Origin: Eledone cirrhosa
Lineage: Eukaryota
Length of the DNA stretch: 64,000 nt
Direction: 5' to 3'
Assembly: GCA_964016885.1 (NCBI GenBank)
Contig: OZ024748.1
Location: forward strand, 2,666,001-2,730,000
Shown: piece by piece, positions 15,555 through 62,731 of the stretch
Position numbering within the stretch: position 1 is the first letter of the stretch
Layout: each line of letters starts with the position of its first letter
Translations under genes and position numbers: made by a program
The notes under the pieces: model-generated
Databases searched by the model: none
Seen by the model: only the letters and a program-made list of their open reading frames with translations
Told to the model about the DNA's origin: nothing

Positions 15555-15842
15555 TAATAATAATACATGTGAAGACTAAACTCCAAAGAGGGCTCGATAA
15601 GGATAAATATATATCAGATATATAAGAACCGTAGAGCAAATATTTATTAAAATTTACAGATTAAAGTTTAAGCTGCTTTCACCCTTAACGGCCGTTTCGA
15701 CAGCTAGTTCTAGTTGTCGAAACAGCCGGAGCTCAGCCGTTGGGATCCTGACTCTTTTCTTATAACCCACTCTACTACCCTAAGTGTCGAGTACTCTGGT
15801 GCGTTATGGTCCCTTGGTTTCTTTCCACACTTTCTTTGTTAT
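15555..15842. mobile_element. Junction of PLE-derived family C (minus) and family A (plus) in TA repeats
   Basis: 15555-15690 is the reverse complement of 62590-62730. 15690-15842 is family A with a short hairpin tttcgacagctag-tt-ctagttgtcGAAA. Confidence 0.8.
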
Positions 15843-16214
15843 ATATATATATATATATATTATATTATATTATATTATATTATATTATATTATATTATAT
15901 TATATTCTATTATATTATATTATATTCATTTTCGGTTTCTCCTATGTGATCCTGTCTCTGTACTCCTGAAGAAAGGCTTAAATCTGACACTAAGACTTTT
16001 TGTACCTCCGTTTGTGGTCTCCTTGAACTACACACACACACACACACACATATATATATATATTGAACTACATATATATATATATATATATATATATATA
16101 TATATATATATATATATATATATATATATATATATATATGTATAAAGGTCGATCGACTTTCGTCAAATCAGACCGAGGAAACAATGTTTCCGTTGGTCTT
16201 TCCAATCCAATTGC

Positions 16215-16345
16215 TAATACTATCTATTGGTCGCAACTCCAGGTAGAAGGAGCAATGTGAAATAAAGTATCTTGCTCAAGGACATAACACATCGCCTGTT
16301 CCAGGAAAGAACTAACAACCTCTCTAACCAATCAGCCACGCGCCT
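16215..16345 (-). mobile_element. SINE family 2 fragment
   Basis: ggagcaatgtgaaataaagtatcttgctcaaggacataac...agccacgcgcc. Confidence 0.7.
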
Positions 16346-16947
16346 TATATATAAATTATAGTCGAAGCTGAGGATACTTTCCCCAGAATGTTCATATATA
16401 TGTATCACATTACTCACACACACACACACTCACACACACACACTACATACACTCACACCCACTCACACACACTACACACACACTACACACACACTACATA
16501 CACTCACACATACTCACACACACGCTCACACACACACACTCACACACACTCACACACACTACATACACTCTCACACACACACACACTCACACACACTCAC
16601 GAACACTCATACACACTACACACACTCACACACACTACACACACTCACACACACACACACTCACACACACTACACACACTACACACACATACATACATAT
16701 ATATACATATATATATATCGCAGTTTTTATGAGTGTTTGTTTTATCGTAACAGTAATTATTTCCAACAAAGACAATCAACATTCTTAACTGAACGAATGA
16801 AAAATATATATAAAATATATAAAATATATAAAATAGCTCTGGTCATCATTTAATCAGTAAGTTAGAAAACCTTATAGTGATCGATCATCAATAGATTTTA
16901 AATCGATCTCAGCCATCACCACCCAACCACCAACAGCTAAAAATTTT

Positions 16948-17170
16948 TGGCAGCATCGGTAGAGCGTCGGACACCCCGATTTCCGGCAGAAAGTTATGTC
17001 CCTTTACGTTCTGAGTTCAAATCCCGGCGAGGTTAGCTTTCCCTTTCAACCTTACAGGATCGATAAAATAAAGAACCAGTAATGTACTGGGGTCGATTTA
17101 ATGGACTCCCCCCACCCCCCACCCCACACGAAATTGCTGGCCTTGTGCTTATACTAGAAACTATTATTAA
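16948..17170 (+). mobile_element. SINE family 1
   Basis: tggcagcatcggtagagcgtcggac, gagttcaaatccc, body and gaaactattatt tail. Confidence 0.85.
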
Positions 17171-17460
17171 CACCACCACCATCACTACCATCATCATCAC
17201 CACCAGTGCCATCCCCCCCCCCAGCCTCATCACCATCATCACCACCACCACCACCACCACCACCACCATCACTACCATCATCATCACCACCAGTGCCATC
17301 ACTATTACTATCACCAATGCCATCGTCTTTATCACCACCATCACCACTACCATCATCACCACGGTCACCGCCACCACCACCACCACCACGATTACCCCCA
17401 GTCCCACCACCATCACCATCACCCCCCACCCCCCAGTCCCCCACCCCCACCATCACCAGT
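17170..17460. repeat. (CAC/CAT)n low-complexity tract
   Basis: Directly visible. Confidence 0.9.
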
Positions 17461-17864
17461 GCCACAGTCCTTATTGATGTGTTCCATTAGATCAAGTTAG
17501 AGAGCAAAGTTGCCAGTTATTTCCCCGTTATTCTGTGGGAGTTAAAGGTGATGACACTAACATTTCCCTTACCATAACATAGAGAGGGGGAACAATATCT
17601 CTCCCCCTCTCCCCCCTCTCTCTGTCGACATATGTGTATGTTTAACCTCATGACACACACACATACATATATACACACATACATATATACATATATACAT
17701 ATATACATATATATAATGTGTGTGTGTGTGTGTGTGTGTGTGTGTGTGTGTATAACTTTATCAAAACCACGTGATGCTCGGTGTAACGACGTCTGTCGGA
17801 GATGAATGAACAACACCAACACCGCCGCCGCCGCCAACATTACCAATATGATCGGCAACACCGC

Positions 17865-18300
17865 CCACCACCACCACCTATACCACTACCACCACCTATA
17901 CCACTACCACCACCAACACCACTACCACTACCCCTACCACCACCTATACCACTACCACCACCACTACCACTACCACTACCACCACCTATACCACTACCAC
18001 CACCAACACCTATACCACTACCACTACCAACACCTATACCACTACCACCACCAGCACCACCACCTATACCACTACCACCACCACTACCACTACCACCACC
18101 AACACCTATACCACTACCACCACCAACACCTATACCACTACCACTACCAACACCTATACCACTACCACCACCAGCACCACCACCTATACCACTACCACTA
18201 CCACCACCAACACCTATACCACTACCACCACCTATACCACCACCCCCACCAACACCGCCTATACCGCCACTGACGACAACAACAACAGCAACAACAACAG
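17865..18300. repeat. CCACTA/CCTATA-based cryptic minisatellite
   Basis: Repeated caccacctataccactac units, with a ~120-bp internal duplication (17990-18110 vs 18110-18230). Confidence 0.9.
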
Positions 18301-59910: not shown

Positions 59911-60020
59911 TCAGAGAGTCACTCCGATACTATCAGAGAGTCACTCCGATACTATCAGAGAGTCACTCCGATACTATCAGAGAGTCACTCCGATACTATC
60001 AGAGAGTCACTCCGATACTA
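59911..60020. repeat. 22-bp tandem repeat, 5 perfect copies
   Basis: tcagagagtcactccgatacta starts at 59911, 59933, 59955, 59977 and 59999. Confidence 0.95.
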
Positions 60021-60091
60021 TGGCTTCTTCCGAAGAGTCTTTGCAGTAACGTTACTCGATAGAGTGCGTAGCTCGGAAATCAGAGTCACTC

Positions 60092-60751
60092 CTACGTTTC
60101 CCAGAGACCAATGTGTGTCCATAGGGCAACAATATATATCACCCTCGGTGACCCTCTTCTAGTGTATCCGTGTAGGGGCTCCCACAAGAGCACTGAGTAC
60201 AGTGTCAACTCTGAATGTCGGTAAGCATGTCCAGCTAACCTCAGTCTCCTCTGTGTCACTTTCGAGCTGACTCTTGGGAGACTCCCACACAGCTCTGAGA
60301 TCTTCATCCTCAGTGTATACTGTTTAATGTTCACAGCCATCCTCAGTGTATACTGTTTAATGTTCACAGCCATCCTCAGTGTATACTGTTTAATGTTCAC
60401 AGCCATCCTCAGTGTATACTGTTTAATGTTCACAGCCATCCTCAGTGTATACTGTTTAATGTTCACAGCCATCCTCAGTGTATACTGTTTAATGTTCACA
60501 GCCATCCTCAGTGTATACTGTTTAATGTTCACAGCCATCCTCAGTGTATACTGTTTAATGTTCACAGCCATCCTCAGTGTATACTGTTTAATGTTCACAG
60601 CCATCCTCAGTGTATACTGTTTAATGTTCACAGCCATCCTCAGTGTATACTGTTTAATGTTCACAGCCATCCTCAGTGTATACTGTTTAATGTTCACAGC
60701 CATCCTCAGCATTCTCGTGTAGCACCCATCCACCATGTGAGTGAGTTTCTT
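60092..60751 (-). mobile_element. RTE-type LINE ORF C-terminal remnant with internal 33-bp repeat x12
   Basis: VDGCYTRMLRMAVNI...ELCGSLPRVSSKVTQRRLRLAGHAYRH...LLWEPLHGYTRRGSP is a typical RTE-group post-RT domain. Confidence 0.87.
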
Positions 60752-62194
60752 ATAGATACATAATACACACATCCACACATACACACACATACATACACAC
60801 ACACGCACACATACACACACACACATACACACACAGATACATATACACACATACATACACACAGATACACACATACACATGCATACACACACATGCATAC
60901 ACACACATGCATACACACATGCATACACACACGCATGCATACACACACACACATTCATAAACATATACATACTTACACACATACATACATACACACATGG
61001 TTAGGAAATTACAAGTACAATCCATGAACGGAACAGTAAAAATATGTAAAACATTCCAAAATTCATACATACATATGTACATACGTACATACATATATAT
61101 ATATGTATATATATATATATATACATACATACATAAATACATACATACATATATATATATACATACATATATATACATACATACATATATATATACATAT
61201 ATACATACGTACATAAATACATACATACATAAATACATACATACATAAATACATACATACATATATATATATACATACATATATACATACATACATATAT
61301 ATATATACATATATACATACGTACATAAATACATGCATACATACATACATACATACATACATACATACATACATACATACATACATACATACATACATAC
61401 ATACATACATACATACATACATACATGTGTGTGTGTTACAACTTTATGTTGAAATAATACGCCTATTATACAATAATATACAATATAATATACAATATAA
61501 ATTAACCACCAAAAGTAGAGATTCAATGACATAAGCGGCAGTTACATCAACTCCACTACTAACAGCTAATATGAACACTAATAAACGAGTCATAAAACAA
61601 ACCGTTTTCTCATTTTTGGCTCGCTCAGTGGAAAATTAACTTAATTATTTCATTTATGTGAGAGATTTTAAAGGTCATCAATAGATTTTATTTATGTAGT
61701 TTTTTTTAATTCTTTTTTTCTGGATTTCTTTACATTTTGTTTGCTTTACTGTTTAGTTTTTTGTTTGTTTGTTTTTTTTGGTTGCTGTTTGTTGTTTTTT
61801 TTACGTTTTTACAAATTTTCTCGTGTAGATTTCTTTGTAAGATGTGTTAAAATGTTTTGCCTTTCATTAACGAAATGTTATCGTTTATTAACATTTAATA
61901 ACCTTTTGATAAGCAACTATCTTTCAGTAAACATTTCACCAAACGGCGCCATCTTACAGTAAACATCTCACCCGTAAAACACTGTCTTCAAGTAAACATT
62001 GCTTGATAAGGCGCCATCTTAGAATAAACATAACTTACTTTGAAAACACCTCAAGACGTCTTAGGATAAACATTGACTAATTAAACAATCGCCCTTGGTA
62101 GACAAACCAAACAACAACAACAAGAAAAAAACAAGCACTAACTTAGGTGCATATGGGATATATTCCATAAAGCGACGTCTACGAGTATATAGGA

Positions 62195-62445
62195 CAGACT
62201 CTACCATTAAGGCCAACCGGGCAGCCGCATAGGGCGCAGACCTCAGAGAGGCGTTTTGCTGGACATTATAGGATCATAGCTTTATACAGGGCTGGTGTTC
62301 CTATTAAGGCCAACCATGTAGCCATAGAGGGCGCAGACCTCAGAGAGGCGTTTTGCTGGACATTATAGGATCATAGCTTTATACAGGGCTGATAACTCTA
62401 ACCCATTAAAGCCAACCAAGTAGGTATCGAGGGCGTAGACCTCAA
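62195..62445 (+). repeat. ~100-bp imperfect tandem repeat, about 2.5 copies
   Basis: attaa(g/a)gccaacc...agggcgcagacctca starts at 62206, 62303 and 62405. Confidence 0.85.
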
Positions 62446-62533
62446 AGGAGAGGATCGTGAGAATCCGTTGGATGAAATGCGCGTTCTCGAGGATGGTTTG
62501 ATAATTTGTTGTGGAAAAAACTTTATATATATA

Positions 62534-62731
62534 TAACAGATTAAAGCTTAAGCAAAGAATCGCTGCTTTCACCCTTAACGGGATCTTAACGTTAAGGGTG
62601 AAAGCAGCGATTCTTTGCTTAAACTTGAATCTGTTATTTTAATAAATATTTGCTCTAGGGTTCTTATATATTTGATATATATTTATCCTTATCGAGCCCT
62701 CTTTGGATTTTAGTCTTCACATTTATTACTA
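62534..62731. mobile_element. PLE-derived family C fold-back
   Basis: taagcaaagaatcgctgctttcacccttaacg-ggatcttaa-cgttaagggtGAAAgcagcgattctttgctta. tatcgagccct box. TA flanks. Confidence 0.85.

Follow-up and report, generated by a model that had tools for sequence, protein, structure and literature searches.

Palindromic insertions of Penelope-like elements in Eledone cirrhosa share a 5′ boundary that may mark the start of the element RNA

Introduction

Palindromes of several repeat families in the genome of Eledone cirrhosa have their centres in or beside the hairpin just 5′ of GAAA, a conserved part of a predicted hammerhead ribozyme. What sets this common point? The stretch that raises the question, called the window here, is the 64,000 nt from 2,666,001 to 2,730,000 on the forward strand of contig OZ024748.1 (GCA_964016885.1), in a TA-rich animal genome of 3.0 Gb. 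A first-pass annotation had listed eight palindrome centres, at 15708, 23985, 48262 and 52865 (family A), 56937 and 62585 (family C) and 33605 and 24175 (family B). It had proposed that nascent cDNA copied through hammerhead stem II snaps back on that hairpin and primes its own second strand. All eight centres are present at these positions, their arms are unequal as described, and every palindrome of the set sits inside a (TA)n run.

The palindromes are truncated insertions of Penelope-like elements (PLEs), which number in the tens of thousands in this genome; a single 22-nt word of family A is matched exactly 54,367 times. They lie in (TA)n, with a tailed and a tail-less arm in head-to-head orientation. 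Probably, though with real room for doubt, their shared 5′ boundary is the capped start of the element RNA and the arms are made by target-primed reverse transcription from both cut strands. The feature is real, the mechanism first proposed for it is mostly wrong, and the replacement is likely as far as DNA footprints can tell. The natural record gives two rules: one end is tailed and the other tail-less, and the 5′ boundary carries cap, initiator and TATA signatures but is ignored by long insertions.

The description of the palindromes as 5′-truncated inverted insertions stands, and they were made independently. Junction, loop and subfamily sequence vary from locus to locus, which points to separate events and not to one amplified ancestor. 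Across 30 family A loci in the genome the junction differs at almost every site, and families B and C are alike in this. Subfamily-specific bases usually match between the two arms of one family A insertion.

Pairing of tailed and tail-less arms

Two fixed 3′ ends, tailed and tail-less, occur in every family. Arms were mapped onto natural long copies as references in 1.06 Mb of sequence picked by position. This set comprises eight blocks, three of them the window and its neighbours and five adjoining earlier matches; it also took copies of other families from the flanks of search loci. Matches of the query family were excluded, as were arms that lay at the edge of a locus or matched weakly at the 3′ end, and a separate 200 kb was held out as a test. 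Each of the 66 inverted A arms with a same-family partner is joined to one of the other kind, tailed to tail-less. The same pairing is found for 28 of 40 scored same-family arms in family B and 27 of 29 in family C, the remainder being mostly old copies or doubtful matches. Of the 66 in family A, 11 have a partner that consists of the tail only and has no sequence in common with the other arm. Partners seemingly of another family were discarded as simple-repeat matches where they mapped far upstream in reference B, and an apparent A/G difference between arms was set aside as a likely bias from ranking matches by query likeness.

All 13 long inverted insertions that could be resolved follow the one-tail rule, and in five of them the tail-less arm is the longer; its excess over the tailed arm can amount to kilobases. 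The earlier claim that the longer arm runs to the element's 3′ end is thus right for short copies and wrong for these five. Short-read contigs of one study, whose sample is possibly the assembly's own, contain 13 distinct tail-to-arm joints; no contig of that study bridges the 48262 centre by 31 nt on each side. Some junctions (L024, L091 and the C28 block) carry short templated insertions from nearby element sequence. Such insertions recall polymerase-theta-type end joining.

The arm pairs are most simply read as primed from both ends of the target. According to the available text of PMC11167929, the PAc protein of a Poseidon element cuts and extends both target strands, two internal start sites of reverse transcription flank the tail, and uncleaved RNA serves as template.

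The shared 5′ boundary

Arm 5′ ends were measured from the G of GAAA, with negative values upstream. In the position-picked set 82 of 93 family A arms end at most 25 nt 5′ of GAAA, as do 58 of 64 in family B (at most 26 nt) and 26 of 45 in family C (at most 25-26 nt). The held-out sequence gives 25/26, 8/10 and 4/8 for A, B and C. B has a sharp boundary, A a softer one and C a leaky one. Arms stop at one and the same template position whether tailed or tail-less, which rules out a fixed cDNA length as the cause of the boundary. Non-inverted TA-flanked copies end at the same boundary as inverted ones. As the first-pass annotation had supposed, the template RNA was uncleaved at the hammerhead: arms run across the cleavage triplet, and the 5′ ends of tail-only family A arms do not cluster at the cut site, so that run-off there was rejected for this family. 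Of 12 long insertions whose sole selection criterion was an open frame extending beyond the upstream GAAA, none stops at the boundary (15 passes), a result that speaks against the hammerhead as an intrinsic stall site.

The boundary is a purine in TTAGTC (A), TCAGTT (subfamily A2), TTAGTT (C) and CCAGAT or TCAGCT/TCGGCT (B), sequences that are initiator-like. Its structural setting varies: in A it falls within stem II, in B and C it coincides with the 5′ strand of helix I, and in family D it precedes the core by about 90 nt. The ends of family D come from all-against-all mapping, which is less rigorous than that used for A, B and C; they fall 12-90 nt upstream of the core, with the last cluster at 86-90, at TCA/CTA. 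A TATWWA box is found at -29 to -34 in 28/29 read-through copies of A, 17/18 of B and 10/22 of C.

The base 5′ of the putative +1 was counted by hand in the first 100 listed rows of TA-flanked copies after removal of duplicate rows. It is G in 38, C (the template base) in 15, T in 17 and A in 7 of 77 copies of subfamily B2. In family C the counts are G 15, C 2, A 14 and T 48 (n = 79) and in family A they are G 16, C 8, A 8 and T 47 (n = 79), T being the template base in both. Seven nucleotides downstream in family C, G occurs in 2 of 82 copies (Fisher p 6e-4 against the C start site). The extra G is supplied by neither template nor flank. Snap-back on helix I would give A in C and T in B1 and leaves the Gs there unexplained; the B1 variant TCGG, which has no AG, nevertheless shows the extra G.

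The available text of two papers provides parallels: Penelope of D. virilis has an internal initiator promoter in its pseudo-long terminal repeat (pseudo-LTR) (PMC2377424), and an extra 5′ G is the cap mark in full-length L1 insertions (PMC11702581). The shared 5′ boundary is likely to be the capped start of the element RNA.

Proposed mechanism

A promoter in the pseudo-LTR, consisting of the TATA-like box and initiator, would place the RNA start 18 nt ahead of GAAA in A and 25 nt ahead of it in B and C. Reverse transcription would begin at about +43 to +50 for the tail-less arm and at about +110 to +140 for the tailed arm, 60-165 nt downstream in the 5′ untranslated region (UTR) and ahead of the open reading frame (ORF). 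The reverse transcriptase (RT)-endonuclease would nick both TA strands and prime one cDNA at each site. Each cDNA would run off at the cap, often gaining a C opposite it that reads as G on the sense strand, or would stop sooner. The two cDNA 3′ ends would then be trimmed and joined via a few bases of microhomology, leaving a 'strong-stop' palindrome, or a tail-only/tail-less join if the tailed cDNA stops short. Long insertions would use a template that has no end here, such as a read-through multimer or a circle, or would involve strand transfer to the 3′ repeat.

More tentatively, the PLE cycle as a whole may include a strong-stop step, in which a dimeric RT-endonuclease works at two fixed sites beside the cap. 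Failed transfer would leave cap-to-cap palindromes in their tens of thousands, and successful transfer to the 3′ repeat would regenerate the pseudo-LTR and the inverted repeat. If true, the sole complete hammerhead copy would determine where the 3′ repeat ends in family A, the 5′ copy being split by the start site. A telomerase-related element would then have an LTR-like cycle, and the hammerhead would be given a job. In LTR elements minus-strand strong-stop DNA is primed near the RNA 5′ end, runs off at the cap and is transferred to the terminal repeat. Unlike that process, the one considered here has no tRNA primer, RNase H or integrase; the primer is target DNA and the short product is itself integrated.

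Several observations count against a capped start with priming from both strands. The capped start is drawn from DNA footprints only, and the majority of ends lie 0-15 nt short of +1 and not on it. A simple +1 RNA predicts full-length copies ending at +1, and there are none among the 12, so a second template class or strand transfer must be added. Nineteen of 45 family C arms read through. The stop rate in family A is 0.049 per nt before the boundary and still 0.024 after it (11 arms, some cut off by short references). A2 and 12/22 C copies lack the TATA-like box. Because the read-through copies of any one family share ancestry, the box counts are non-independent, and the background of such a box in the same references ranges from 0 to about 25%. 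No clean downstream promoter element was seen by eye at the boundary. The G excess is modest in A (16 G against 8 C, p 0.15). In B2 snap-back on helix I could supply a template for the G, a context that suits 18 of the 38 G cases. The control for the excess is a single position in family C. Exceptions to the one-tail rule comprise ten B and two C arms paired tail-less with tail-less and one B arm paired tailed with tailed, several of them old or spurious. The held-out sequence gives 18 of 23 family A pairings by the rule and five exceptions, four of these from one duplicated insertion. Two further points are also what self-priming predicts: the arms of one insertion are usually of one subfamily, and in short A palindromes the tailed arm is longer in 10, shorter in 4 and equal in 13.

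Alternative explanations

Self-priming would have one cDNA run off at the RNA start, fold back on microhomology and prime its own second strand, the endonuclease later trimming one end to the tail-less site. PMC3846280 puts forward self-priming for the junction palindromes of PLEs, and PMC8557442 suggests resolution by the endonuclease as the origin of the tail. The likeness of paired arms (mean edit distance 2.9 within one A insertion versus 7.6 for random pairs) and the arm lengths just given speak for it, and with later trimming it could serve for the overlapping class. The 11 tail-only joins and the five long insertions with the longer tail-less arm, however, would require loss of the first-made, target-joined end. 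Nor would self-priming give arms of two subfamilies or families, as at L002, L036 and window position 15690, although no clear case occurs among 27 position-picked A pairs. It also runs counter to the extension of both target strands in vitro (available text of PMC11167929). On balance it is unlikely.

Somewhat less likely again is a template boundary made by protein or structure near the start sites, as in telomerase, which would block the first pass only, the G being non-templated. Such a block would account for the 12 long insertions whose second pass goes on without a stop. The fold of the RT is like that of TERT, and the hammerhead of a related PLE is protein-assisted, as reported in the available text of PMC11167929. 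This explanation predicts neither a TATA-like box at -30 nor an initiator, the boundary sits in different structures in A, B/C and D, and G at the control position is found in only 2/82.

Snap-back on stem II, the mechanism of the first-pass annotation, is largely refuted as the main cause and now has very little probability. Its hotspot is real, in that ends pile up just 5′ of GAAA, but the hotspot tracks the initiator, TATA and extra-G site and not stem II pairing. In favour of snap-back, 10/45 C ends and 10/64 B ends lie in stem II, and the C palindrome at 56937 is centred there; stem II may make a minor contribution in family C. The 5′ strand of the natural stem II, in contrast, is reached by only 5 of 93 family A arms and never by the other 88, and 48 of 64 B ends lie in the core or the helix I 5′ strand, beyond a weak stem II. 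Family D, where 28 of 29 arms pass stem II, serves as a control against the model. The same boundary in non-inverted copies, the tail-only joins and the free second passes would all be left unexplained.

A 3′ splice or processing site at the boundary, with the RNA continuing into a short exon 1 that ends in GAG, is a shade less probable still. Pyrimidine-rich sequence and AG do occur at the site in A, B2 and C, and the intron of D. virilis Penelope ends at the helix I 5′ side (available text of PMC4209133), but the bases 5′ of the G are heterogeneous, with no common exon, and B1 has its extra G at TCGG, without AG. An assembly artefact, which TA-rich palindromic sequence invites, or one amplified ancestral palindrome can be dismissed, since junctions differ nearly everywhere, the arms are diverged and asymmetric, and subfamily bases match within insertions.

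Hammerheads

A type I hammerhead is predicted in the pseudo-LTR of families A, B and C. The family A core in read-through copies is UUGANAA in 35 of 36 counted, with one CUGAGGA, so that a U3-A8 pair stands in place of C3-G8. The same covariation is reported for a Cercyon hammerhead in the available text of PMC4209133. One family A copy with the canonical C3-G8 core (L061:1533, minus strand) provides natural covariation within one family. The natural stem II of A is an imperfect hairpin of about 55 nt whose 5′ strand lies 44-52 nt upstream of GAAA. The 13-bp hairpin that the first-pass annotation took for stem II is a product of the inversion. Family B has a canonical CUGAUGA core and a weak stem II without a stable fold alone, while in family C the core is CAGAAGA and stem II has 3 bp. 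Stems were assigned by eye and by folding.

CUGANGA is missing from all A and C copies of the window, as had been noted. That its place is taken by a mirror image of the 3′ part is correct only in part, the sequences in read-through copies being mostly the natural variants UUGANAA and CAGAAGA. The non-inverted copies expected to have CTGANGA upstream of the family A stem amount to two matches genome-wide, the genuine one at L061 and one inversion by-product. The family B2 palindrome at 24175 retains CTGATGA. An Rfam scan gave no hammerhead among the 150 of 433 matches listed, all of which are chance microRNA-type matches to TA/CA repeats. A fifth family, E, combines a canonical hammerhead core with a short stem II; it lies at 47900-48090 on the minus strand, with the core at 48015, and has four copies among the loci collected.

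Identity of the elements

Long family A copies led to the young element, a tandem unit of 3531 nt in the order hammerhead, tail and 716-aa ORF. The ORF encodes a single RT with a C-terminal GIY-YIG endonuclease (YRDD at 348, YIG at 606). It has more than 2000 homologues, one of which carries PF01541; Pfam and PDB sequence searches with the ORF itself gave no match. Its structure model is of high confidence (pLDDT 92), and TERT structures are among the top fold matches alongside other RTs. For families B and C only related endonuclease-end fragments were seen. Young intact family A copies are more than 99% alike.

Four motifs recur in the 95 aligned homologues: RWR at residue 37 (RW[KR] in 90, RWK in 66), DKT in place of DKG at 117 (in 90), a CxCX5C linker, CNCPDRSIC at 572 (kept in 92), and CNLC..E..N..CKH at 670, a CxxC/CxH arrangement around a conserved E and N (in 93). 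The (TA)n target preference, partial tandems, inverted 5′-truncated copy and optional tail are all present, as in endonuclease-containing (EN+) PLEs. The elements are EN+ Penelope-like and are placed in the Hydra clade because these motifs and the TA target match the clade features, which were taken, with Hydra-1_Obim (File S1), from the available parts of PMC8557442. The Neptune clade was rejected, its CX2-5CxxC linker and DKG both being absent. A non-LTR retrozyme was rejected since the copies are dispersed, head to head and mostly without a core, and are not short hammerhead tandem repeats. A miniature inverted-repeat transposable element (MITE), a DNA transposon with terminal inverted repeats, was also rejected, the ends being unequal and the centre different at each locus.

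Four near-identical 3531-nt A units stand at L255-L256 (G000:C1:437.198-437.215 Mb), with unit position 865 alternating C/T/C/T. A dimeric template could give this two-unit period, and so could duplication at a later time or an effect of assembly.

Relation to known systems

Hydra elements, inverted pseudo-LTRs, junction palindromes, the tail, opposite-strand hammerhead pairs and the U3-A8 core are already known. The available texts of PMC2377424 and PMC8557442 state that the origin of PLE pseudo-LTRs, inverted repeats and the one-sided tail is unsolved. The present elements share with the Hydra clade the RT and C-terminal GIY-YIG ORF, the RW[K/R], DKT, CxCX5C and CxxC..E..N..CxH motifs, (TA)n, a hammerhead in the pseudo-LTR, the optional tail and partial tandems. 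They differ in unit size (3.5 kb, where the available part of PMC8557442 gives generally <3 kb), in tail length (65-90 nt against 30-40), in the U3-A8 core of A with its 55-nt stem II and in the CAGAAGA of C. Palindromes of 100-250 nt in mass with a fixed 5′ boundary are not described in the part of that paper available.

Poseidon PAc of Anolis in vitro is alike in that two internal starts of reverse transcription set the tail, both strands are cut and extended, and the RNA is uncleaved. The assignment of sites to strands and the cDNA ends are absent from the available text of PMC11167929, whereas here one tailed and one tail-less end is nearly the rule; the PAc tail lies in the ORF and the present one in the 5′ UTR. 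Penelope of Adineta vaga has head-to-head inverted pseudo-LTRs, a junction palindrome, a tail on one end and TATA and Inr-like motifs. Its few copies are read as self-priming in the available text of PMC3846280; here the junctions lie at the putative start, with an extra G, and include non-overlapping arms. In L1 twin priming, according to the available text of PMC11702581, the second strand primes internally, two cDNAs are joined with microhomology, and an extra G marks RNA 5′ ends. The second L1 priming site is opportunistic and beside the first cDNA end, while here both sites are fixed and beside the cap, and the arms are usually duplicates.

The literature searched gave no paper in which the inversion junctions of PLEs are connected with a transcription start, a cap G, twin priming or strong-stop DNA, although subscription papers and unsearched supplements may hold one. 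The available texts of PMC13282606 and bioRxiv 10.64898/2026.07.22.740005 have no account of junctions at a capped start or of one start site per strand. Such elements can be mistaken for MITEs or microRNA-like hairpins in annotation, and the palindromes seed tens of thousands of potential double-stranded RNA hairpins.

Insertions and other repeats of the window

Family A insertions show the range of arm ends. At 15691-15837 (plus strand) an A2 insertion consists of an inverted stub (15691-15708) and a forward tailed arm whose 5′ end lies 10 nt before GAAA (G at 15719). Head to head with it, as a cross-family chimera, stands a family C tailed arm with an internal deletion (15552-15690, minus strand; self-BLAST to 62590-62728). 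A tail-less arm ending at -17 (23926-23985, minus) faces a tailed arm at 23987-24098 (plus), in which GAAA-stem III was lost between two GCCGTC repeats. At 48125-48265 (minus) the 5′ end of the tailed arm is the putative +1 A (48264, -18), and the tail-less arm (48263-48320, plus) ends at -15. The tailed arm at 52729-52867 (minus) likewise ends at +1 (-18), the next base being a G that is possibly the partner arm's; the partner (52868-52939, plus) has its 5′ end at -14 and its 3′ end in the first part of the tail. The insertion at 57681-57792 has two arms without common sequence: about 57681-57730 is inverted and tail-only, and 57731-57792 is a tail-less A2 arm with its 5′ end at -17.

The B2 palindrome at 24175 comprises a tail-less arm ending at -24 (24107-24177, minus), its core intact at 24172-24166, and a tailed arm ending at -11 (24179-24299, plus). 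In that at 33605 the tailed arm (33483-33609, minus) ends at -17, within the core, and the tail-less arm (33608-33665, plus) at -10, with a junction overlap of 2 nt. An older family B palindrome at 42530-42781, absent from the first-pass list, has both arms tailed and is an exception to the one-tail rule. A family B read-through copy (47715-47875, plus) extends beyond the putative start site; its core is CTGGTGA at 47745, and element sequence goes on upstream, though with a deletion. At 46762-46992 (minus) lie two truncated copies that are TA-flanked and not inverted, one of A (46762-46845, end -4) and one of B (46864-46992, end -18). The family C palindrome at 56886-57030 has arm ends at -7 and -12, within stem II, and that at 62536-62730 has a tail-less arm ending at -17 and a tailed arm at -10. 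Family D is the fourth family with a hammerhead; its palindrome (55389-55854) has 192-nt arms that are 99% alike, CTGAGGA at 55748 and its axis about 90 nt 5′ of the core. Copies of different families are in places stacked in one TA run, each insertion leaving new TA targets, as in the window at 23926-24299 and 46762-46992 and at L076, L092 and L134.

The window has a gap of N at 14354-14553 and several unrelated repeats. A dispersed MITE-like family of about 80 nt, with inverted ends of 12-18 nt and a fixed 39-nt spacer, occurs at 36235-36315, 37619-37702 and 50670-50756. An abundant interspersed repeat of about 190 nt, resembling a short interspersed element, is found at 4206-4664, 10227-10922, 12849-13072, 34454-34645 and 37069-37236. 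Tandem repeats with 84-nt and 33-nt units (66-nt step) occupy 574-1649 and 60305-60709, and the 33-nt-unit repeat yields 13 chance matches to CTGAGGA.

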